Source: Leptospira sp. (lineage in GTDB: Bacteria > Spirochaetota > Leptospiria > Leptospirales > Leptospiraceae). Taken from it: a DNA stretch of 64,000 nt. Where the stretch lies: contig JAWXAQ010000007.1 in the NCBI GenBank assembly GCA_034439575.1, positions 128,001 to 192,000 of the forward strand, in the 5' to 3' direction. The position numbers were made by a program, and so were the translations under genes. Positions 8,447 to 24,227 of the stretch are shown here, in pieces; the stretch's first letter is position 1, and every line of letters starts with the position of its first letter. The notes below the pieces were generated by a model, which was given only the letters and a program-made list of their open reading frames with translations, made no database searches and was not told where the DNA came from.

Positions 8447-10576
8447 ATGATTAAAACTAATTTTGATATTCTTTGGATTATTTTTTCAAGTGGGCTAGTT
8501 TTCTTTATGCAAGCAGGCTTTCTCTGTTTAGAGTCTGGCCTAACAAGAACCAAAAATTCCATCAATGTAGCCATCAAAAATATCACGGACTTCGGGATTG
8601 CCACTGCCGTTTTTTATACACTTGGTTTTGGTATCATGTATGGCGAAAGTTTTTATGGTTTCTTTGGAACAAATTCATTTTTACCTAACTTCGGAATTGT
8701 TTCGCCTGAAATTCCTGTTTTTTTTATTTTTCAATTAATGTTTTGCGGAACAGCGGCAACTATAGTATCAGGAGCTGTCGCCGAACGGATGAAATTCGGT
8801 GCTTATATTATAGTAACGATTATTATATCCGCTTTGATTTATCCACTATTTGGCCACTGGGCTTGGGGGAAAAATTTATCATCTTGGAATATAGCCACGG
8901 GTTGGCTCGCAAAACTTGGATTTATTGATTTTGCAGGATCTACTGTTGTGCATAGTTTAGGTGGATGGGTTGGCCTAGTCGCGATGTCAATTATTGGGCC
9001 AAGGGAAGGAAAGTATTCGGCCTCAGGTGAAATTAGAAATATAACAGGACACAGTTTACCTATTGCCATGCTTGGAACATTGATTCTATGGTTTGGTTGG
9101 ATAGGATTTAATGGTGGTAGCACTTTAGCGTTCTCAGGAAAAGTTCCGGGAATTATCGCAAATACTATGTTGTCTGCTGCAGGTGGATTGGGCGCTGCAT
9201 TAATATACGGATGGAAACGATTAGGTTATGCAGAAGCGACCCTACCATTGAACGGGGCATTGGCTGGTCTTGTTTCAATCACGGCATCTTGTCATGCTGT
9301 AACTTCAGCGCAAGCTTTACTAATTGGAATCGTTGGTGGGATTCTAATGTTTGAGACTCGTCCCCTATTAGATAAATTCAAGATGGATGATGCAGTCGGT
9401 GCCATTCCCGTTCATTTAACAGGTGGAATATGGGGTACTCTCGCCGTCGGTCTTTTTGGAAACTTAACAACTTTAGGAACAGGACTTTCACGTGTTGATC
9501 AAATTTTAATACAACTTACAGGAATCGTATGTTGTAGTTTAAATGCATTGTTCATTAGTTATTTGTTATTGAAATTGATTAATCATTACTATCCGCTTCG
9601 CGTATCATCGCAAGACGAATATGAAGGGCTCAATTTTACTGAACATAGAGCAACGACAGAACTTACTGATTTATTTCTGGAAATGGAATACCAAAAAAGA
9701 ACTGGGGATCTCAGTAAAGATATTTCTGTCGAACCATTTACCGAAGTTGGCCAAATTGCTGAAAGATACAATTTGGTTTTAAAAAAAATAAGAATCGGTA
9801 TCGAAGAAAGGGATCAGCTAACAAAGGATTTACAAAAAAATTTGAGTCTAATTCAGTCTGATCTTTTAACAGCCAAAAAGATTCAAAAGTCAATCATTGC
9901 AGAAAATGATAAAAAAATTCAAGGGTTAAATATTAATGCTCGCTATCTTCCGCTAACAGAAGTAGGTGGAGATTTTTATGATATTTCTGAAGTGAAACCT
10001 GGTGTAACAAGAATATTCCTTGCGGATACGACAGGTCACGGAGTCCAGGCCGCCCTAATGACAATGGCGATCAAAACATTATATGAATCATTAAAGAGGA
10101 AATCATTCTCCGTCGCAGAAATACTCTATTATTTAAATAATGAATTTTTAGATTTTTTTGGAACTTTAAACCAATTCTTAACCTGTATCATTATAGAAAT
10201 AGATATAAATAAAAACCAAATTTTATATTCATCTGCCGGCCATATACCTCAATATTTAGTTGCCGATGGAAAGTTGATTCGATTAGAAAAAACTGGTCGC
10301 TTGTTAGGTGTCAAAAAGAATGCAGAACATGAAAGTAAAATTCTGCCCTTCGCTGGAAATTCTAAGTTATTTTTATTCACAGATGGAATTTCAGAATCTT
10401 GGAATCATGAAAAAATCGAATATGGAGACGAAAGAATTGAAATGATTCTTTCAGATTCTAACAATGCACACGTTTCCGAAACAATAAATCGTTTGTTAGA
10501 TGATCAAAAATTATTTTTAGCAGGCGAAAAGGTAGAAGATGATATTACGATCATCGGCATAGAAAAAGAAAATTAG
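8447..10576 (+). CDS. amt: Ammonium transporter (Amt) fused to a C-terminal SpoIIE/PP2C phosphatase domain
   Basis: Amt motifs FFMQAGF, FQLMFCGTAATIVSGAVAER, DFAGSTVVH, WFGWIGFNGGS, DDAVGAIPVH. Coiled linker, then PP2C motifs VGGDFYD, ADTTGHG, FTDGISE, DDITII. Confidence 0.93.
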   Translation: MIKTNFDILWIIFSSGLVFFMQAGFLCLESGLTRTKNSINVAIKNITDFGIATAVFYTLGFGIMYGESFYGFFGTNSFLPNFGIVSPEIPVFFIFQLMFCGTAATIVSGAVAERMKFGAYIIVTIIISALIYPLFGHWAWGKNLSSWNIATGWLAKLGFIDFAGSTVVHSLGGWVGLVAMSIIGPREGKYSASGEIRNITGHSLPIAMLGTLILWFGWIGFNGGSTLAFSGKVPGIIANTMLSAAGGLGAALIYGWKRLGYAEATLPLNGALAGLVSITASCHAVTSAQALLIGIVGGILMFETRPLLDKFKMDDAVGAIPVHLTGGIWGTLAVGLFGNLTTLGTGLSRVDQILIQLTGIVCCSLNALFISYLLLKLINHYYPLRVSSQDEYEGLNFTEHRATTELTDLFLEMEYQKRTGDLSKDISVEPFTEVGQIAERYNLVLKKIRIGIEERDQLTKDLQKNLSLIQSDLLTAKKIQKSIIAENDKKIQGLNINARYLPLTEVGGDFYDISEVKPGVTRIFLADTTGHGVQAALMTMAIKTLYESLKRKSFSVAEILYYLNNEFLDFFGTLNQFLTCIIIEIDINKNQILYSSAGHIPQYLVADGKLIRLEKTGRLLGVKKNAEHESKILPFAGNSKLFLFTDGISESWNHEKIEYGDERIEMILSDSNNAHVSETINRLLDDQKLFLAGEKVEDDITIIGIEKEN

Positions 10577-10771: not shown

Positions 10772-11056
10772 TTATTTTTTTCCATTTTTCTCTTCTTTTT
10801 TGGATTCTCGTTTCTCTTCTTTTTTGACTTTTTTGAAGTTCTTTATTTCATCCGCAGTAATAGAGCCATCTGCGTCTTTATCAAATTCAGTAAATCGAGC
10901 ATCGTGAAAAGTTTGCCATTCTTCTTTAGTAATTTTTTTATCTGAATTCGCATCCATTTCTTTAAAATGTCCCATACCATTCCCTTTATCATGAGCGCTC
11001 AGTGCGACTGAAAAAGTAAATAGGGAAATTAGTGAATAATAGTGTAGTTTCATCAT
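10772..11056 (-). CDS. Secreted EF-hand calcium-binding protein
   Basis: Signal peptide (..FSVALSA-H); two EF loops DANSDKKITKEE and DKDADGSITADE; Lys/Glu tail; AGAGGA SD. Confidence 0.85.
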   Translation of the reverse strand: MMKLHYYSLISLFTFSVALSAHDKGNGMGHFKEMDANSDKKITKEEWQTFHDARFTEFDKDADGSITADEIKNFKKVKKEEKRESKKEEKNGKK

Positions 11057-11210: not shown

Positions 11211-13052
11211 ATGCAAAATGAATACCTACTCGGCATTTCTGCCTATTATCATGACAGTGCTGCGTGTTTGCTAAAGAACGGAGAAATCGTAGCTGCGGCT
11301 CAAGAAGAAAGATTTACTCGGAAAAAACACGATTCCAGATTTCCAATCAATGCTATCCAGTATTGCCTTAAAGAAGCAAATATCAGTTCCGATGATTTAA
11401 CGAATGTTATATTTTACGACAAACCATTAGTTAAATTTGAAAGATTATTAGAAACTTATCTTTCTTACGCACCCCGTGGATTGTTCTCGTTTTTTGCTGC
11501 GATGCCAATTTGGCTGAAAGAAAAACTTTTTCTAAAAAGTACCCTACAAAAAGAATTTAAAAGTTTATCACCCACGAAAAAATCTCCTAAACTTTTATTC
11601 ACCGAACACCACCAAGCACATGCAGCCTCAACTTTCTTTGTTAGCCCTTATGAAAAAGCCATTGTTCTTTGTCTTGATGGGGTTGGTGAATGGGCAACTA
11701 CTTCCGCTTGGGTCGGAGATGGCAACAAACTAACACCTCTTTGGGAGATCGACTTTCCACATTCGATAGGTTTATTATATTCAGCATTTACTTATTATAC
11801 AGGGTTTAAAGTAAATTCAGGTGAGTACAAAGTAATGGGACTCGCACCGTATGGCGAACCAAAGTATGTTGATCTCATTTATAAACATTTGTTAGACCTA
11901 AAAGAAGATGGTACATTTCGTTTAAATATGGAATACTTCAATTATGCAGCTGGCCTAACAATGACAAATGATAAATTTCATAAATTATTTGGTGGGCCAC
12001 CAAGAAAAAGTGAATCTACTCTCACACAAAAGGAAATGGATTTAGCTAGATCAGTCCAAGAAGTCACCGAAGAAGTTATGTTACGACTTGCAAGAGCGGC
12101 AAAAAAAGAAACAGGTATCAATCATATTTGTTTGTCAGGTGGTGTCGCATTAAATTGTGTAGCAAATGGAAAAATACTAAAATCAGGAATTTTTGATGAA
12201 GTATACATTCAACCTGCTGCGGGCGATGCAGGTGGTGCACTAGGTGCTGCACTTTCTGCACACTACGAATATAAAAAACATCCCAGAAAAGTGAATCCGC
12301 TTGATTCTATGAAAGGTTCTTATTTGGGACCATCATATGAAAATCCTGATATTAAAATTTCTTTAGATAAGCTTGGTGCCAAATATACAGAGCTTTCCAA
12401 CGATGCGCTTGATGACCGTTTGGCGAAAGTATTAGAAGAAGGAAATGTAATCGGTTATTTCCAAGGACGAATGGAATTTGGACCACGAGCCCTTGGTGGA
12501 AGGTCTATTATTGGCGATCCAAGAAACCAAAAAATGCAATCGGTGATGAACCTAAAAATCAAATATAGAGAAAGTTTTCGTCCATTTGCTCCCGCAGTAC
12601 TTGCAGAAAAAGTTTCTGAATATTTTGATATCAAAGCAAAAAGCCCTTATATGCTAATAGTCGCAGATGTATTGCCTAAACATCGAATTGAAATGACAAC
12701 CGAACAACAAAAGTTATTCGGTATAGAAAAATTGAATGTTCCAAGGTCTTCATTACCCGCCATAACGCATGTAGATTATTCAGCAAGAATTCAAACGGTC
12801 CATCCTGAAACGAATCCAAGATTTCACTCACTCTTAACAAAATTCTATAAACTGACAAATTGTCCAGTTTTAGTAAATACCTCTTTCAATGTTAGAGGAG
12901 AGCCAATCGTATCTACACCCGAAGATGCTTACAGATGTTTTATGAGAACTGAAATGGATTATCTCGTCATTGAAAATTTTCTATTAGATAAAAAAGATCA
13001 GCCCATAATTGAAAAAGATGATTCTTGGAAACAAGAATTCGAGTTGGATTAA
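11211..13052 (+). CDS. O-carbamoyltransferase, NodU/CmcH/TobZ family (SxtI-like)
   Basis: GISAYYHDSAA, AAQEERFTRKKHD, EHHQAHAAS, DGVGEW, GEYKVMGLAPYG, GGVALNC, GRMEFGPRALG, RESFRPFAP, NTSFNVRGEP. Confidence 0.95.
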   Translation: MQNEYLLGISAYYHDSAACLLKNGEIVAAAQEERFTRKKHDSRFPINAIQYCLKEANISSDDLTNVIFYDKPLVKFERLLETYLSYAPRGLFSFFAAMPIWLKEKLFLKSTLQKEFKSLSPTKKSPKLLFTEHHQAHAASTFFVSPYEKAIVLCLDGVGEWATTSAWVGDGNKLTPLWEIDFPHSIGLLYSAFTYYTGFKVNSGEYKVMGLAPYGEPKYVDLIYKHLLDLKEDGTFRLNMEYFNYAAGLTMTNDKFHKLFGGPPRKSESTLTQKEMDLARSVQEVTEEVMLRLARAAKKETGINHICLSGGVALNCVANGKILKSGIFDEVYIQPAAGDAGGALGAALSAHYEYKKHPRKVNPLDSMKGSYLGPSYENPDIKISLDKLGAKYTELSNDALDDRLAKVLEEGNVIGYFQGRMEFGPRALGGRSIIGDPRNQKMQSVMNLKIKYRESFRPFAPAVLAEKVSEYFDIKAKSPYMLIVADVLPKHRIEMTTEQQKLFGIEKLNVPRSSLPAITHVDYSARIQTVHPETNPRFHSLLTKFYKLTNCPVLVNTSFNVRGEPIVSTPEDAYRCFMRTEMDYLVIENFLLDKKDQPIIEKDDSWKQEFELD

Positions 13053-13053
13053 A

Positions 13054-13464
13054 ATGAAAGATACCACCAAACCTACACCCAGCCTTGACGATTTAAGAAA
13101 ATTTGCATTCATAGTCGGGGGTGTCCTTGCTGTGATTTTCGGCGGACTCATTCCCTATTTGAATCGAGGATCTTGGAATCCTAATTTGGTCTATATTGGT
13201 TCGGCCATCATATTCCTTGGAGTCACCGTTCCAAAAATATTGCTATATCCTTACAAACTTTGGATGTTGATCGGTGAAGTTCTCGGTTGGATCAATACAC
13301 GTATCATCTTATCTGTTATCTTTTTCTTGTTGTTTACACCAATTGGAATTATAAAAAAGATCTTCGGTAATGACTCTATGCGAAGAAAGTTGGATTCAAA
13401 GACTGAAACTTACCGCATAGTTTGTATAGAACGAACATCAGATCATATGGAAAGGCCATTTTAG
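13054..13464 (+). CDS. SxtJ-family membrane protein
   Basis: ATG 1 nt after the carbamoyltransferase stop. LRKF, two TM helices, WMLIGEVLGWINTRIIL...FTPIG, C-terminal MERPF as in SxtJ-type proteins. Confidence 0.88.
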   Translation: MKDTTKPTPSLDDLRKFAFIVGGVLAVIFGGLIPYLNRGSWNPNLVYIGSAIIFLGVTVPKILLYPYKLWMLIGEVLGWINTRIILSVIFFLLFTPIGIIKKIFGNDSMRRKLDSKTETYRIVCIERTSDHMERPF

Positions 13465-13473
13465 AGGAACAAA

Positions 13474-13626
13474 ATGATAGAATTACTTAAGGACTTATGG
13501 GATTTTTTAAGAATACGGAAAAAATTTTGGTTAGCACCCATTATAATCATCTTACTTTTATTAGGTGCTCTGCTTGTATTAACACAAGGTTCAGCAATCG
13601 CTCCTTTTATATATACTTTATTCTAA
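13474..13626 (+). CDS. DUF5989/SxtK-like 50-aa single-pass membrane peptide (not in ORF track)
   Basis: GAGGA SD, then ATG 13474: MIELLKDLWDFLRIRKKFWLAPIIIILLLLGALLVLTQGSAIAPFIYTLF* (TAA 13624-13626). Confidence 0.9.
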   Translation: MIELLKDLWDFLRIRKKFWLAPIIIILLLLGALLVLTQGSAIAPFIYTLF

Positions 13627-13627
13627 G

Positions 13628-14785
13628 TTAATTTGAATTAAAAAGGGGAGATTTTTGTAAATGTTGTACGAAAATCTTCCCAAATACTTTGTGACCTTCC
13701 CCATTCCAATGAGCATCATATGGAAAGTATAAATTTTCCGGATTCACATTCCATAAAAGCCTAGATGTCATCAAACAATCAATAAACTTCATTTCACAAA
13801 AGGACTGTATATTTTTAAGATGCGGATTTTTTTGTTCATACGCTTTTATTTCATGGGATTTGATATCACCAAGAATTCCACCTTTTGCAAAAAATTCTTT
13901 TGCTGGGATATATATAATTCCCATTTTAATATTATTTTCAGTTAAAAGATCAAAAATTAAATCAAGATAATATATCTCTTTTTCCAAACGATCCTTCCAA
14001 ATCTGTGTTTCAGCAGATGCGTAAAATTCAAATTGTCCATTGTACTTAGTTTGAATCGATTCCGAGAGCGGTGTTAGTCGACCAAATTTCTGAAGTGATT
14101 CTTGGTGATTCAACAATTTCACATCCGGCACACGATTTTCTTTGTAATATAAAATGGGTTCAGTTCCACCTTTTGCAAATTTTAAGGACCGCTTTATAAG
14201 TCGGATAGTTGTGCTTTCCTTAACAAAATTGTAAAGTGGAGTGCTAAATATTTTAGCTAACAATGGTTTTTTGGGAATTCTAATTCCGTCCTTCTCTTCC
14301 AAAAATATTTCAAATTTATCAATATCATCCAAATCATTATCAAACAATTGAATATAAACAACCTCTGGTCTAAATTTTTTAACGTATTCTTTTAAGTGAA
14401 TGTACATTAAAGATGGAGAAGAGCCATGAACTCCCATATTTCTAATTTTTTTGTCTTTAGGTAATTCTTTATTGGCAATTTCTGTAAAAACTTCGTTCTC
14501 TTCAACTCCCCAACCTTCTGAGAATGAATCACCAACTAACAAAACAGGATAATTATCGGATGTTAATTTTTGTCGTCCGCCAAAATTATTAGTTTCTACT
14601 AAAACTTTATATTCTTCGGAAACAACATACCCAGACTTATTTGGATACATAGAAAATAATAAATCATCATCAAATGATTTTACAAATACAACTTCTGGAT
14701 CAAATAATCTAAGTAAAAATTCTGCAATGCTAATATAAAACAAAATCAAAACAAAATACAATACTAATTTTTTAAATATTTTCAT
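13628..14785 (-). CDS. Membrane-anchored SGNH/GDSL-fold protein (AlgJ/AlgX/DltD-like)
   Basis: N-terminal TM anchor (..AEFLLR); block I GDSFSEG, block II NMGVHG, block III DNDLDD, block V YDAHWNGEGH. Confidence 0.85.
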   Translation of the reverse strand: MKIFKKLVLYFVLILFYISIAEFLLRLFDPEVVFVKSFDDDLLFSMYPNKSGYVVSEEYKVLVETNNFGGRQKLTSDNYPVLLVGDSFSEGWGVEENEVFTEIANKELPKDKKIRNMGVHGSSPSLMYIHLKEYVKKFRPEVVYIQLFDNDLDDIDKFEIFLEEKDGIRIPKKPLLAKIFSTPLYNFVKESTTIRLIKRSLKFAKGGTEPILYYKENRVPDVKLLNHQESLQKFGRLTPLSESIQTKYNGQFEFYASAETQIWKDRLEKEIYYLDLIFDLLTENNIKMGIIYIPAKEFFAKGGILGDIKSHEIKAYEQKNPHLKNIQSFCEMKFIDCLMTSRLLWNVNPENLYFPYDAHWNGEGHKVFGKIFVQHLQKSPLFNSN

Positions 14786-14843: not shown

Positions 14844-15779
14844 TTACGATTCTTGAAAATCAGTAAGTAATTCAGAACTATTATCATTTAACAAAATGGT
14901 GATAATAGCTTTTGAACCATCGTCTTCGTAAGTCAAATCATCGAAGGATAATCGACGAGCCATAAAAATGCCTCGGCCATGTGTTTTAAATGCATTTTTG
15001 GTCATGGCTTGTAATGATAAAAACTTTCTCCAATCAAATCCTTTGCCCTGATCTTTTATAATAATTTTAATCTTATCTTCAAATTTCTCAAACAAAATTT
15101 GTACAAACTTTTGTGCATATTCAGGTTGATTCAATCGATTGAAAATTTCTTCCATCAATTTATCATTATCATGCAATTCCGTTTTTTCTTGATAGGTGAT
15201 GCCTAAATTACCATGTTCAATTGAATTATTCAGAATTTCCATGATCCCAGTTAACACTCGTTCTGGATTTGGACATGCATTCGCTAGAATTGGTGCCAAT
15301 TCATGAGACTCACGAATTGACTTAATTCTAAATTCACCCTTAACAAGGTGACGCAGTGCGCCCATTCCTTTATGCAGATCTTCTTTAGCTTTCTGTAATT
15401 TTATATAATGTTCAACTGCTGTCTGTACGATTGTGACTAACAATGCTCTTGAATAAGGTTTCGTTAAATAATAAAATGCACCTGCATCTAAACCATCAGT
15501 CATATCTGTAACTCCGCTCATAGCAGTCTGAAATATTACTGGGATATCTTTCCATTTCTCAGAATGTTTTATTTTTCTAAGTAATTCTATGCCATCCATC
15601 TTCGGCATCAATCGATCGAGTATAATTGCAAAAAAAGGAAATTCATTTCGATTTAATATGGCAAGTGCTTCTTCTCCATCTCTAGCTTTGACAATATTAA
15701 ATCCTTTTTCGCTTAACGACTCTTCAATGATCATTAAATTGATTGATTCGTCATCGACTGCCAAAAGATTCATAGTCAT
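14844..15779 (-). CDS. Response regulator: REC plus RsbW-like HATPase (Ser kinase/anti-sigma) output domain
   Basis: REC (VDD, ILDRLMP, FQTA, TKP); C-terminal EILNNSIEHGN, KDQGKGFDW, HGRGIFM; no H-box. Confidence 0.85.
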   Translation of the reverse strand: MTMNLLAVDDESINLMIIEESLSEKGFNIVKARDGEEALAILNRNEFPFFAIILDRLMPKMDGIELLRKIKHSEKWKDIPVIFQTAMSGVTDMTDGLDAGAFYYLTKPYSRALLVTIVQTAVEHYIKLQKAKEDLHKGMGALRHLVKGEFRIKSIRESHELAPILANACPNPERVLTGIMEILNNSIEHGNLGITYQEKTELHDNDKLMEEIFNRLNQPEYAQKFVQILFEKFEDKIKIIIKDQGKGFDWRKFLSLQAMTKNAFKTHGRGIFMARRLSFDDLTYEDDGSKAIITILLNDNSSELLTDFQES

Positions 15780-17359
15780 ACAAATTCTCCTTGTTTGACG
15801 GGTAGAAGTAAAGTAAAAATAGCCCCGCCATCTTCATGATTATCTGCATATAGCAATCCATGATGGTCATTTACAATTTCCCTAGATATTGACAATCCTA
15901 GTCCTGTGCCCTTAGTTCCAGCCTTTACTTGTTTGGATTGAATGAATTTTTCAAAAATTTTATCCAAGTCTTCAGGGAGAATGCCAGGTCCAAAATCCCT
16001 AATTTGAATCCCTATTCCTTTTACATACTTTTTCGTCTTCAAAGGTATAAACTCTCTTTCAGTTTTTGTAATTTCAATCACAGTATTGTCGGGAATAAAT
16101 TTCAAAGCATTCGATAGTATGTTTCGTATAACTTGCTGAATACGCTCAAAATCAAACTCAGCCTGCCAACGTTCATTCGAATTTTCAATTTTAATTTGAA
16201 TATTCTTTTTTTCTAATATAAGACTAAGTTCACCAGTCACATATTGTAATGTTTCTTTCAAACAATTTGGTTCAAATAAATACCTCATTTTGCCAGATTC
16301 CAATTTTGCTAAATCTAAAAGGTTTTCTAACAAATTTAACAATCGTTTTCCGGATGTATCTATGATTTGAAAGTATTCTTGTAATTTTTGTGGATTAGCT
16401 AATGTCGCTTTTGAAAACCCAAGTTCAGCATAACTTAAAATAGCATGAATTGGAGTTTTTAATTCATGCGAAATATTTGCAAGAAATAGTGATTTCATTT
16501 GAGATGCTTCTTCCGCGACTTCTTTAGCAATTTTTAAATCTAAGGTTTGTTGCTCTACTAATTCCTCTAAGTGATTTCGATAATGGAAAATTTCTTCTTC
16601 TTGTTGTCTACGAATCGTAATATCTCGTATGATACCAAAAAACATCTTTCCAGTATTTGTTTTAAATTCTCCGACAGATATATCGCAAGGAAAAGAATCA
16701 CCATTTTTCCTTAATCCTTGTGACTCAAATTGCGATTGGGCCAAATTTTCCCAAGCATTCGCATTACCAGTATTAACTAATTTTGGTAGAATGCCATAAA
16801 TTTCTCTTGAAAGTATTTCTTCCTGTTTATATCCAAACGAAATTTCTGCAGCCTTATTGAAAAATTGTATGATACCTGATTCATTGAAGATCACTATAGA
16901 ATCTGCAGCATTCTGAGCCATTGATAAAAATCTAGATTCACTCTCTAGAAATGCCGCTTCTAAACGTTTACGTTCCGTTATATCACGATGTGTTGAAACA
17001 ATATATCCTTCATATATTACAACGAATCTTACTTCTGCAAATCGGACTTCATCAGTAGAATTATATTCATATTCTTTCCAGAAGACTTGATTCTTTTTAA
17101 TACTTAAATATCCAATTGCTTCTTCGGCAAGTTTACTTAAATAAGGAGGCAATCCTTCCCATAATTGTTTACCTACGATTTCTTCATTGGATTTTCCCAT
17201 CGTCATATAACGAGAAGGTTTAAAATCTACTATCAAACCATCGAAAGTAAATTTTAGCCAAAAATCTGGATTTGAGCGTAAAAGATTTTCAAGTTCGCGT
17301 AATACTTCTTCGGAAGTAAAAGCCCTTGGATTTTGCCAAATTCTTTTTAATTGATTCAT
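15776..17359 (-). CDS. PAS-PAS sensor histidine kinase
   Basis: Two PAS-like regions, FLANISHELKTP H-box, NILSNALKF, DFGPGI, GTGLGL; ATGA overlap with the downstream regulator. Confidence 0.93.
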   Translation of the reverse strand: MNQLKRIWQNPRAFTSEEVLRELENLLRSNPDFWLKFTFDGLIVDFKPSRYMTMGKSNEEIVGKQLWEGLPPYLSKLAEEAIGYLSIKKNQVFWKEYEYNSTDEVRFAEVRFVVIYEGYIVSTHRDITERKRLEAAFLESESRFLSMAQNAADSIVIFNESGIIQFFNKAAEISFGYKQEEILSREIYGILPKLVNTGNANAWENLAQSQFESQGLRKNGDSFPCDISVGEFKTNTGKMFFGIIRDITIRRQQEEEIFHYRNHLEELVEQQTLDLKIAKEVAEEASQMKSLFLANISHELKTPIHAILSYAELGFSKATLANPQKLQEYFQIIDTSGKRLLNLLENLLDLAKLESGKMRYLFEPNCLKETLQYVTGELSLILEKKNIQIKIENSNERWQAEFDFERIQQVIRNILSNALKFIPDNTVIEITKTEREFIPLKTKKYVKGIGIQIRDFGPGILPEDLDKIFEKFIQSKQVKAGTKGTGLGLSISREIVNDHHGLLYADNHEDGGAIFTLLLPVKQGEFV

Positions 17360-17472: not shown

Positions 17473-18543
17473 GTGATCTACGAGAACCTATTAAAACCTA
17501 TTCTTTTCCAATTGGATCCGGAATCAGCTCATCATTTTGCAGCCTCACTGATAAATCTTTCAAAAAATATTCCCTTTTTTCATCATTCTCTGCGTATGCT
17601 CTTGGAATACCGATCAGATAGACTCAGGCAGTCAATTTGGGGCATAGAATTTAAAAACCCTATCGGACTGGCGGCAGGTTTCGACAAAACTGCTGAACTT
17701 TATCCCTCTTTAGTCAATATGGGTTTTGGATTCATTGAAATCGGCACTATTACTGCTAAGGAACAACCTGGAAATGATCTACCACGACTCTTTCGTTATC
17801 CAAAAGAAAAAGCTTTAATCAATAGGATGGGTTTTAATAACCCTGGAGCAGATAAAACCGAGCTTACATTAAAAAGACAAAAGAAAACAGGCATTAGGGG
17901 AATCAACGCAGGTAAATCAAAAATTACACCTATAGAAGAATCTACATCCGATTATATTTATACTTTAAAAAAACTTTTACCTTATGCTGATTATGCTGTA
18001 ATTAACATCAGTTCACCAAATACTCCAGGCTTACGTTCCTTACAAAATAAAAAATCTTTGATTGACCTGATAGATGGAATTCAAAGTGAATTTGGAAATA
18101 AATTTCCTGTTCCATTATTTTTTAAATTTGCACCCGATCTTACTTTTGATGAATTAAAAGAAAATTTGGAGATTTGCCTTTCAAAGAAAATTGATGGAGT
18201 CATACTTACAAATACCACTTTAGATAAAGGATTATTAGGCGAAGGTAGCTTTCCAGAAGGCGGATTATCTGGTGCCCCTCTATTCGAAAAATCACTTTCT
18301 TTTGTTTCGGAAGCTTATAAAATATTACAGGGCAATATACCAATCATCGGAGTTGGTGGTATTGATTCTGGCGAAAAGGCATTAAAAATGATATTAGCTG
18401 GTGCTAATTTACTTCAAGTCTATACAGGTTACATTTATGAAGGTCCATTCCTTCCCAACCAAATATGTGCTTTCTTAGATAAATATTTGAAAAACAATAA
18501 ATATAATCATATTTCAGAGATCGTCGGACTAAATCACAAATAA
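17473..18543 (+). CDS. pyrD: Quinone-dependent dihydroorotate dehydrogenase (class 2)
   Basis: NPIGLAAGFDK, QPGNDLPRLFR, INRMGFNNPG, NISSPNTPGLR, TNTT, GGLSG. Confidence 0.96.
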   Translation: MIYENLLKPILFQLDPESAHHFAASLINLSKNIPFFHHSLRMLLEYRSDRLRQSIWGIEFKNPIGLAAGFDKTAELYPSLVNMGFGFIEIGTITAKEQPGNDLPRLFRYPKEKALINRMGFNNPGADKTELTLKRQKKTGIRGINAGKSKITPIEESTSDYIYTLKKLLPYADYAVINISSPNTPGLRSLQNKKSLIDLIDGIQSEFGNKFPVPLFFKFAPDLTFDELKENLEICLSKKIDGVILTNTTLDKGLLGEGSFPEGGLSGAPLFEKSLSFVSEAYKILQGNIPIIGVGGIDSGEKALKMILAGANLLQVYTGYIYEGPFLPNQICAFLDKYLKNNKYNHISEIVGLNHK

Positions 18544-23018: not shown

Positions 23019-24227
23019 ATGAAAGAGAAAAACCCTCCTAAAAAAATCGTACTGGCTTACTCAGGCGGTTTAGATACCTCAGTCATCCTAGCATGGCTTA
23101 AAGATACTTATGGTTGCGAAGTCATCGCGTTTTGTGCTGATGTGGGCCAAAAAGAAGAACTCACTGGCTTAGAAGAAAAAGGAAAAAACACTGGGGCTTC
23201 GAAGGTATTTATAGAAGATTTACGTTTAGAATTTGCTCGAGATTTCATCTATCCAGCCATTCGCGGATCAGCCATTTATGAAATGCGATACTTACTCGGC
23301 ACTTCATTAGCGAGACCACTGATAGCAAAAGCGATGGTCGATGTAGCTTTAAAAGAAGGAGCTGATGCTTTTTCGCATGGTGCCACAGGAAAGGGAAACG
23401 ACCAAGTACGATTTGAACTCACATTTAAAGCATTATCCCCTGATTTACAAATCATTGCCCCTTGGCGTATTTGGGAATTTGGTGGCCGACAAGACTTAGT
23501 AGAATATGCGAAGAAAAAAGGAATACCTGTTCCCGTAACAGCCGCTAAGCCTTATTCGATGGATAGAAATCTTATGCATCTTTCTTTTGAAGGTGGTATA
23601 TTAGAAGATCCGTATACGGAACCCAAGGAAGATATGTTTATTCTCACTGTCTCACCAGAGAAAGCACCCGACAAAGCCACTTATTTAGAGTTAGGTTTTG
23701 AGAAGGGGGATTGTACTTCAATTGATGGAAAAAAAATGAATCCATTAGAAGTTATGGACTTCTTAAACGATGTGGGTGGTAAAAATGGAATCGGTCGTGT
23801 GGACATCGTAGAAAATAGATTGGTTGGGATCAAATCTAGAGGTGTATACGAAACCCCTGGTGGAACGATACTACATACTGCTCATAGAGATCTTGAATCG
23901 ATAACTATAGACCGCGACACTCAACACAAAAAAGACGAACTCTCTCATGAGTTTGCTCGTTATATTTACAACGGCCAATGGTATTCAAATCAAATGAATG
24001 CTTTAAGAGTATTTATGGACTATACACAAACGTCTGTTACGGGAACTGTTCGTATAAAACTTTATAAAGGAACTTGCAGTGTCGTGGGCAGAAAATCTGA
24101 TAAATCCTTATATAACGCTGGATTATCTACTTTCGAAAAAGAAGAATTGTACAATCAGAAAGATGCAGAAGGTTTTATAAACCTCTTTGGTTTACCGATG
24201 AAGGAATGGGCAAGAGTAAGGAAATAA
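23019..24227 (+). CDS. argG: Argininosuccinate synthase
   Basis: [44 protein letters not shown]. Confidence 0.98.

Follow-up and report, generated by a model that had tools for sequence, protein, structure and literature searches.

The four-gene locus

In a 64,000-nucleotide (nt) stretch of the genome of Leptospira sp. (GenBank assembly GCA_034439575.1, contig JAWXAQ010000007.1, positions 128,001 to 192,000 of the forward strand), hereafter called the window, we analyzed a group of four genes (Table 1) that may together carbamoylate an acceptor outside the cytoplasm. Three of them, encoding an O-carbamoyltransferase (CT), an SxtJ-family membrane protein and the DUF5989/SxtK peptide (K for short), lie on the same strand and are referred to as the trio. 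The fourth, on the opposite strand, encodes a protein of the SGNH/GDSL type. The original prediction for this DNA had described the trio as tightly packed, with a K peptide of 50 amino acids (aa) and with the SGNH gene 1 nt away in a tail-to-tail arrangement, and every particular of that description was upheld by the open reading frames (ORFs), the raw sequence and Pfam.

The SxtJ reading frame opens at a TTG at 13009, the likely start being the ATG at 13054, 2 nt past the CT stop, and a GAGGA is situated 5 nt 5' of the ATG of K. The TAA stop of K (13624-13626) is followed by one base and then by the reverse complement of the SGNH stop (13628-13630); as these two stops face each other, K and SGNH are tail to tail with a 1-nt gap. 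A promoter and terminator scan identified nothing distinctive between the two genes, and no Rfam family matched anywhere in the window.

Table 1. Genes and sites of the locus, with positions counted from the first nucleotide of the window.
Feature	Position	Strand	Basis
O-carbamoyltransferase (CT), NodU/TobZ/NovN type, 613 aa	11211-13052	+	ORF, Pfam, solved relatives
SxtJ-family small membrane protein, 136 aa	13054-13464	+	Pfam, hydropathy, family alignment, fusions
DUF5989/SxtK single-pass peptide (K), 50 aa	13474-13626	+	Pfam, charge, hydropathy
K C-terminal hexapeptide F45-I-Y47-T-L-F50, stop directly after	13606-13623	+	FxYxxF fit
K Tyr47 codon	13612-13614	+	
Membrane-anchored SGNH/GDSL protein, AlgX-like C-terminal half, 385 aa	13628-14785	-	weak Pfam, family profile
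SGNH signal-anchor helix, residues 7-25, MKIFKK before	14711-14767	-	hydropathy 2.53, +3 charge ahead
SGNH block I, G85-D86-S87 (putative nucleophile Ser87)	14525-14533	-	conservation, 63 family members
SGNH block V, D357-A-H359 (D-x-H-W, as in AlgX-type match)	13709-13717	-	conservation; inside ALGX Pfam match

The K peptide and its conserved tail

K was matched by DUF5989 (PF19451, 1.1e-26) through the last position of the profile. It ends in APFIYTLF directly followed by the stop, and its terminal hexapeptide meets the FxYxxF definition. By hydropathy and charge, the peptide consists of a basic, amphipathic N-terminal part with a net charge of +2, one hydrophobic helix and an uncharged 14-aa tail, TQGSAIAPFIYTLF. 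The same asymmetry is found in the family, where the mean net charge over 145 representatives is +2.5 on the N side and +0.1 in the tail. K is thus predicted to be single-pass, with its N-terminus inside and its short tail outside the cytoplasm. The SGNH domain is also predicted to be outside. The K C-terminus would be located where the original prediction had placed it, i.e. not in the cytoplasm.

Relatives of K are numerous. A word-indexed search in which 8000 candidates were scored returned at least 7997 of them at E<=0.001, some carrying the source name 'SxtK'. Among the closest matches listed, all 120 are 50 aa long and end in APFIYT[LI]F, 115 with TLF and 5 with TIF. By an index-free search, 3543 representatives of 50%-identity clusters were found to match K at E<=0.001. 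In the best 150 of these, strict FxYxxF is present in 138, being located at the very C-terminus in 111, and a tail of the form [FLY][IVL]Yxx[FILV] is kept in 146; the remaining four lack the Tyr tail, one of them by a Y-to-C change. Conservation of the Tyr/Phe-stop tail in DUF5989, on which the original prediction depended, is borne out by both sets.

The Tyr is also kept in four divergent cyanobacterial K peptides, with tails FIYTVI, FIYTII, FIYTII and FVYPFF. Four loci in small cyanobacterial genomes (L158-L161, in G319, G343, G341 and G199) have a divergent K in the order K-SxtJ-CT and possibly represent one clade. Their K tail ends in I in three out of four cases, with the Tyr retained, and a search for SGNH genes there gave no strong full-length match, only weak partial ones, none of them near K. 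These loci hint that the terminal Phe of K may be tied to the SGNH partner.

This tail has known counterparts. According to one study, the acyl-carrying Tyr of DltX is part of a conserved hexapeptide, FXYXXF, at the C-terminus, with which PatA and further bacterial MBOATs end as well; the acyl-Tyr serves as donor for an SGNH partner, and AT3-SGNH enzymes such as OatA likewise use a Tyr donor (PMC12148441). The DltX of B. thuringiensis is described as a 48-aa protein with a cytoplasmic N-terminus, one transmembrane helix and a 15-aa outer tail ending in FIYNEF (PMC5541007). All 11 MBOAT ORFs in the genome from which the window derives end, as K does, in a motif of this kind ([F/V]xY[F/Y]xF-stop) after their last helix and a short linker. 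The K profile found no credible match among the PDB sequences, the ESM Atlas gave nothing for K, and NCBIfam gave nothing useful for either K or SxtJ.

The trio and its SGNH neighbor across phyla

A pattern-based scan of species-representative genomes identified 80 K loci in many phyla. As the scan patterns included the K tail itself, these loci were used for the analysis of gene neighborhoods and not of motif conservation. K is accompanied by CT in 74 of the 80 and by SxtJ in 66 according to tblastn, to which Pfam added three; several of the misses are situated at contig ends. The gene order varies and includes CT-SxtJ-K, SxtJ-K-CT, CT-K-SxtJ and K-SxtJ-CT, and most CTs neighboring K in other phyla are 57-70% identical to that of the window. 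The recurrence of the same genes across phyla places this gene set far beyond chance. Furthermore, two natural fusions were found, namely a CT-SxtJ protein of 747 aa (L163, 1344-3587) and an SxtJ-K protein of 203 aa (P0317). Both leave the K C-terminus free, and in L163 K is convergent to an SGNH gene, as in the window. CT, SxtJ and K form one unit.

A hidden Markov model (HMM) for SGNH was seeded with the Leptospiraceae family and iterated on the ORFs of the 80 loci, converging on a set of 50 ORFs from 39 loci. In the 90 kb lying no more than 600 bp from the trio, it had 26 matches (in 25 of the 80 loci), compared to 24 in the 1023 kb farther out and nine in the 4109 kb of the window's own genome. 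SGNH matches are thereby 12 times as dense beside the trio as in the more distant parts of these loci, and about 130 times as dense as in the own genome. When the 421 neighbor ORFs were clustered, SGNH was the sole family recurring across lineages, at 10 loci against at most four for the next clusters, which stem largely from related lineages, e.g. Pelagibacteraceae and Balneola. Besides SGNH, the nearest neighbors (143 of 148 ORFs scanned, the five longest being omitted) are often glycan genes, such as GT2, GT4, GT1, sugar transferase, DegT, UDP-glucose dehydrogenase and deacetylase genes. In three loci the SGNH gene is even found within the trio, between SxtJ and K (L062 and L139) or between CT and K (L096).

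The distribution of K and SGNH was also followed by lineage, in samples of 41 genomes of Leptospirales, 301 of cyanobacteria and 201 of the SAR11 order. K is present in eight of the Leptospirales, seven of which have the SGNH orthologue (E<=1e-59), as do none of the 33 genomes without K; one of the latter has an SGNH match at 2.4e-5. In G000 and four of its congeners, SGNH is found next to K and convergent to it. In a genome from another family (G030), K and SGNH are paired divergently on one contig, with CT and SxtJ on a different one. In yet another congener (G001; L111, G001:C14:152000-168000), the trio, with a CT 62% identical, is situated inside a cluster of sugar-nucleotide and glycosyltransferase genes. 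This cluster also holds a dTDP-sugar epimerase, a C-methyltransferase, a GT2 enzyme and an AT3 acyltransferase.

In the cyanobacteria, K scored above the cut-off in 48 of the 301 genomes. A cyanobacterial SGNH query (E<=1e-10) matched 32 of these and none of the 253 without K. The SGNH gene is within 5 kb of K in 19 of the 32 and unlinked in 13; in eight of the latter, 21 kb or more separate the two on one contig, and in five they are on different contigs. Ten further K-bearing genomes have more divergent SGNH genes adjacent, and in 18 of the best 30 cyanobacterial K loci an SGNH ORF of about 420 aa directly follows K. In the SAR11 order, K was found in 73 genomes and the SGNH family profile (E<=1e-15) matched 64. 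Both are present in 57 genomes, K only in 16, SGNH only in seven and neither in 121, i.e. SGNH accompanies K in 57 of 73 genomes and occurs in 7 of the 128 without K.

The enrichment of SGNH genes beside the trio, which the original prediction had called for, was therefore found both in the gene neighborhoods and, as a phyletic tie, in three lineages. This genomic association suggests that the SGNH protein belongs to the CT-SxtJ-K system.

The SGNH protein and its family

By Pfam, the SGNH protein has only weak matches, ALGX (PF16822, 1.3e-3, residues 265-382) and Lipase_GDSL_2 (6.7e-3), both below the curated cut-offs. The Ser, Gly, Asn and DxH blocks, which had been noted as intact, are conserved in an alignment of 63 family sequences, in which G85, S87 and H359 are invariant and D86, N116, N150, D151 and D357 are at least 90% conserved. 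With its N-terminal half, the family profile identified GDSL esterases, its best matches overall, and with its C-terminal half AlgX (4knc, 3.6e-12), AlgJ (4o8v, 1.2e-8) and B. cereus PatB1 (5v8d, 3.6e-5). The ESM Atlas returned GDSL/AlgX clusters only. The protein is predicted to be anchored by residues 7-25, with its catalytic domain outside the cytoplasm.

Other members of this family are found beside membrane donors. Three of the eight further members in the own genome adjoin MBOAT genes, and in three of the seven SAR11 genomes that have an SGNH match and no K, an AT3 gene is located right beside that match. The SGNH family works with membrane donors, as these MBOAT and AT3 neighbors indicate. 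Certain genomes have several copies, e.g. a cyanobacterium with five tandem SGNH paralogues beside K (G324:C1:2555099-2565502), 46-54% identical to the query, and two to four copies are found beside the trio in L051, L074, L094 and G296. The 120 relatives listed for a cyanobacterial member are named SGNH/GDSL or unnamed, SxtL not being among the names.

MBOAT and AT3 genes

Neither an MBOAT nor an AT3 domain was identified by Pfam in the window locus, and no MBOAT was found among the 143 nearest neighbors scanned. MBOAT genes occur within 10 kb of K in only two of the 80 loci (L064 and L108) and in none of the best 30 cyanobacterial K loci within 1.5 kb. The MBOAT of L064 is located 5 kb from K and has an SGNH gene and an FxYxxF tail of its own. 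In L108 (9343-10882), a broken MBOAT, split over three frames, comes right after K and is followed by an SGNH fragment; as CT is split too, the locus looks like an assembly with frame errors. In the SAR11 order, MBOAT was found in 6 and AT3 in 42 of the 201 genomes, and no gene of either kind turned up in 36 of the 57 genomes that combine K with SGNH. A Brocadia-type genome with SGNH between SxtJ and K gave no MBOAT match at all. The absence of MBOAT, part of the original prediction, thus extends to nearly all loci and to most SAR11 genomes with the gene set. The own genome, by comparison, has 11 MBOAT genes.

One locus of the SAR11 order (L164, G399:C1:1022000-1036000) carries SxtJ-K-SGNH-MBOAT-CT as an operon on a single strand, and another SGNH gene is oriented divergently to this operon. 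Here the MBOAT keeps its own tail, FIYFDF, and two donor systems may share SGNH partners.

The carbamoyltransferase and SxtJ

CT was matched by PF02543 (1.8e-110) and PF16861 (2e-73), corresponding to Kae1-like N-terminal and YrdC-like C-terminal domains. The solved NovN (9s2t, 3.8e-100) matches it over nearly its full length (residues 11-597), and the matches to the solved GdmN and TobZ are close to full-length as well. No hydrophobic segment was found by hydropathy, and the enzyme is predicted to be cytoplasmic. Judging from its family, it would make carbamoyl-adenylate and transfer the carbamoyl group to a hydroxyl.

SxtJ belongs to PF19588 (2.2e-18) and has three clear hydrophobic segments and a fourth judged possible. 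The conserved columns of the family alignment are P96, F17, P60 and W70. Its C-terminal end (13054-13461 in the window for the whole coding part) is conserved and on the cytoplasmic side, with the pattern SYR, about 10 residues, a charged residue of either sign, two more residues and F or Y in last position. This end could be a docking peptide for CT.

A possible carbamoyl relay

Taken together, these results are consistent with the four genes acting as a single system, in which an acceptor outside the cytoplasm, an envelope glycan being the likeliest, is carbamoylated by the logic of the MBOAT-SGNH and AT3-SGNH systems and with a different loading module. We put the probability of this reading at roughly 0.55, and the same figure applies to the specific order of transfer, from CT via SxtJ and Tyr47 of K to Ser87 of SGNH and on to the glycan. 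In the first step, the cytoplasmic CT would form carbamoyl-adenylate from carbamoyl phosphate and ATP, as its family does. It would sit on the membrane proteins SxtJ and K, a contact supported by the natural fusions and the conserved operons. The carbamoyl group would then, by analogy, be placed on Tyr47 in the free FxYxxF tail of K, predicted to face the periplasm, with SxtJ as the candidate conduit across the membrane. Lastly, the K tail would deliver the group to Ser87 of SGNH, from which it would pass to a hydroxyl of lipopolysaccharide (LPS), peptidoglycan or exopolysaccharide. K would accordingly act as a DltX-like shuttle microprotein, with CT and SxtJ in place of the MBOAT. The predicted sidedness has the K tail and the SGNH domain outside and CT inside. 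Aryl carbamates readily carbamoylate the active-site serines of serine hydrolases, which favors a transfer from Tyr to Ser.

Several observations weigh against such a relay. The acceptor site of the CT family is cytoplasmic, and Tyr47 is predicted to be periplasmic. No near-invariant His, Asp, Glu, Ser or Cys was found in the SxtJ family alignment, and the SxtJ profile had no credible match among the PDB sequences, i.e. no solved relative; consequently, an MBOAT-like catalytic step in the middle of the membrane is without visible support. Carbamoyl-serine enzymes are usually slow to turn over, making the last transfer chemically demanding. An hhalign comparison of the K family with the last 60 residues of eight own-genome MBOATs aligned only 11 tail columns (probability 7.6%, P 0.0046), and Pfam searches to E=10 with K, SxtJ and SGNH yielded no DltX-like or other informative family, listing for K only DUF5989, OppC_N and DUF5976. 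As the likeness between K and the MBOATs is confined to the tail and no DltX-type Pfam match exists, the data do not establish a shared ancestry, and the motif may have arisen by convergence; the tail comparison with DltX and the MBOATs that the original prediction drew therefore stands as a fit to the motif and not as a relation between sequence families. Furthermore, 27 of the 138 motif-bearing K representatives have extra residues past the motif, which may be gene-calling artefacts.

The association with SGNH has its own weak points. The loci scored by the iterated HMM were also its training set; as independent checks, 10 of the nearest neighbors had Pfam matches to GDSL or ALGX, and the family alignment of 63 sequences shows the catalytic residues to be conserved. 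The Fisher values for the lineage tables (2e-27, 2e-31 and 4e-7) are nominal, because related genomes are not independent. G001 has no SGNH orthologue, its nearest and weaker profile match being 7 kb off, no SGNH was detected in four cyanobacterial genomes with the trio, and 16 of the 73 K-bearing SAR11 genomes gave no SGNH match, many SAR11 assemblies being incomplete. As a whole, the original interpretation is partly supported: its genomic predictions held wherever they were tested in silico, although a minority of genomes have the trio and no detectable SGNH gene.

Comparison with known systems

The Dlt system is one of the closest known systems. DltX and K are both single-pass proteins of about 50 aa with the N-terminus inside and an outer tail of about 15 residues ending in FxYxxF, the topology of K being predicted. 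In the published accounts available, the DltX Tyr hands its group to a membrane-anchored SGNH protein, and K has an SGNH partner by genomic association. The four genes differ from DltX-DltB-DltD in lacking an MBOAT (DltB), a carrier protein and an adenylating DltA; loading would fall to a carbamoyltransferase together with SxtJ, and carbamoyl would be handed on instead of D-alanyl. Pfam provides no sequence-family link between K and DltX, the latter being compared by description.

The PatA-PatB and AlgI-AlgJ/AlgX pairs are described as having FxYxxF at the extreme C-terminus after the last transmembrane helix and a periplasmic SGNH partner, and the four-gene set is alike in both respects. In addition, the family of its SGNH protein matches AlgX, AlgJ and PatB1 in the C-terminal half, and own-genome members adjoin motif-ending MBOATs. 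The set differs from the MBOAT-SGNH pairs in having the motif on a separate peptide, and carbamoyl-adenylate would take the place of acetyl-CoA as donor. The AT3 of OatA-type enzymes is reported to be another membrane donor that uses a Tyr intermediate for an SGNH domain. There is no AT3 domain in the window locus and the Tyr is on a microprotein, although AT3 genes do adjoin members of the window's SGNH family in some SAR11 genomes without K.

CT is the same two-domain enzyme as NodU, TobZ, NovN and GdmN and aligns over nearly its whole length to NovN and GdmN. Those enzymes act alone on soluble small molecules, whereas the clade of the window CT is tied to two membrane proteins.

The same set of families, i.e. 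a carbamoyltransferase, PF19588, DUF5989 and a GDSL-type protein, is found in SxtI-J-K-L of the saxitoxin clusters, SxtL being compared by description only. In published tables, sxtI (carbamoyltransferase), sxtJ, sxtK and sxtL (GDSL lipase, 1281 bp) have consecutive accession numbers, and SxtJ and SxtK are described as uncharacterised helpers of SxtI. For SxtL, described as a GDSL lipase, a possible role in cleaving off the carbamoyl group has been suggested (PMC2885083). The original prediction overlooked this position of sxtL beside sxtI-J-K, by which the four genes of the window are an sxtIJKL-like module and not a trio with a chance neighbor. Other saxitoxin genes are absent from the window, none having been found among the 19 further ORFs scanned (922-35104), and the module is spread over many phyla. 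The accessible portions of the saxitoxin literature examined assign no mechanism to SxtJ or SxtK. The searched literature, which left most subscription-journal papers and supplements out of reach, contained no description of a carbamoyl relay. It also contained no paper on DUF5989 and none that, by title or abstract, linked a carbamoyltransferase with SGNH in a relevant way, and among its titles on the acyl shuttle or DltX none concerned carbamoylation.

Alternative explanations

The alternative that survives best, which we regard as a serious but distinctly less probable one, is that carbamoylation takes place in the cytoplasm. SxtJ and K would serve only to tether CT to the inner side of the membrane or to activate it there, the acceptor would be a lipid-linked glycan precursor or a small molecule exported later, and SGNH would be a periplasmic esterase that trims or removes carbamoyl (or acetyl) groups outside. 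This agrees with the use of hydroxyl acceptors in the cytoplasm by CT-family enzymes, with the lack of a hydrophobic segment in CT and with the lack of a conserved catalytic residue in SxtJ. It also explains the trios without a detected SGNH gene, e.g. that of G001 in its sugar-nucleotide and glycosyltransferase cluster, and a decarbamoylase too would be limited to trio-bearing genomes. A precedent is the putative stand-alone carbamoyltransferase WapO/PA5005, to which O-carbamoylation of the heptose in the Pseudomonas LPS core is attributed (PMC8005017), and the description of SxtL as a possible decarbamoylase (PMC2885083) points the same way. On the other hand, a cytoplasmic reaction gives no explanation for the conserved outer FxYxxF tail or for the K-SGNH pair of G030, which is apart from CT and SxtJ. 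The location of SGNH relatives next to MBOAT and AT3 donors is a transferase arrangement, and the five-SGNH tandem of G324 fits several acceptor specificities better than a single clean-up esterase.

It is improbable, in our view, that CT loads a membrane lipid carrier which SxtJ and K flip, with SGNH using the flipped donor outside. Three-part periplasmic glycan modification systems resemble such a route, which would solve the problem of membrane crossing and would suit the tight linkage of the genes and the small, multi-pass SxtJ. However, the neighbor scans revealed no lipid-binding or polyprenyl-phosphate enzyme recurring beside the trio, the invariant terminal Tyr motif would have no role, and SGNH transferases with known donors, in the literature text available, take their group from a protein Tyr.

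Another suggestion, very unlikely and close to refuted, is that K serves MBOATs encoded elsewhere, as DltX serves DltB, the SGNH protein being the partner of an MBOAT and merely nearby. There are indeed 11 MBOATs in the own genome, and an MBOAT is found inside the cluster in G399 and L108. However, all 11, as well as those of G399 and L064, bear an FxYxxF tail of their own, MBOAT is present in only 6 of 201 genomes of the SAR11 order against 73 of 201 for K, and K is linked to CT and SxtJ instead of to MBOAT.

Equally unlikely is chance adjacency, or hitch-hiking on a variable surface-glycan island with no shared function: in the window, SGNH is encoded on the other strand and no glycan genes flank the locus, and shared ancestry of relatives inflates the co-occurrence counts, yet the idea is contradicted by the SGNH density beside the trio, by orders and orientations that vary across many phyla, by the clustering, in which no other family recurs, and by the phyletic counts, with unlinked cyanobacterial SGNH genes in 13 genomes having K and in none of 253 without it.

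Neighboring genes in the window

The 19 other ORFs scanned encode sensor kinases, transporters and housekeeping enzymes. An ammonium transporter fused to a SpoIIE-type phosphatase domain is encoded just upstream of the four genes (8447-10576, plus strand), and argininosuccinate synthase (23019-24227) and dihydroorotate dehydrogenase (17473-18543) genes are also near. A link between these three and the supply of nitrogen or carbamoyl phosphate is possible, but it may be a coincidence. Between the transporter gene and CT is a gene (10772-11056, minus strand) for a small protein of 94 aa, which has a hydrophobic N-terminus and a tail rich in lysine and glutamate and which matches EF-hand twice. 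Directly upstream of SGNH and on the same strand (14844-17359, minus), a PAS histidine kinase gene and a gene for a response regulator fused to HATPase_c_2, which is anti-sigma-kinase-like, overlap by 4 nt. This pair might regulate the SGNH gene.

Implications

The broader reading is more tentative than the relay itself and, taken as a whole, we consider it rather unlikely: K would be the first known carbamoyl-Tyr shuttle, CT docked on SxtJ and K would be a third kind of transmembrane machine for loading SGNH proteins beside MBOAT and AT3, and SGNH arrays, such as the tandem of five in G324, would distribute the carbamoyl group among different acceptors in the envelope. If it is true, envelope acylation by a Tyr shuttle and an SGNH protein would extend to a new group, carbamoyl, and to a new loader without MBOAT or AT3. 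DUF5989/SxtK and SxtJ, listed as unknown since the saxitoxin clusters were described, would thereby be given a function, and SxtL would be the final carbamoyl transferase, acting outside the cytoplasm, and not a decarbamoylase.

Given how common the module is in SAR11, cyanobacteria, Leptospira and numerous further phyla, O-carbamoylated envelope glycans would then be widespread and overlooked, constituting a +43 Da surface modification in very abundant bacteria (K being present in 73 of 201 genomes of the SAR11 order, 48 of 301 of cyanobacteria and 8 of 41 of Leptospirales). Like O-acetylation and D-alanylation, carbamoylation of the surface could affect phage adsorption, resistance to lytic enzymes and recognition by the host.

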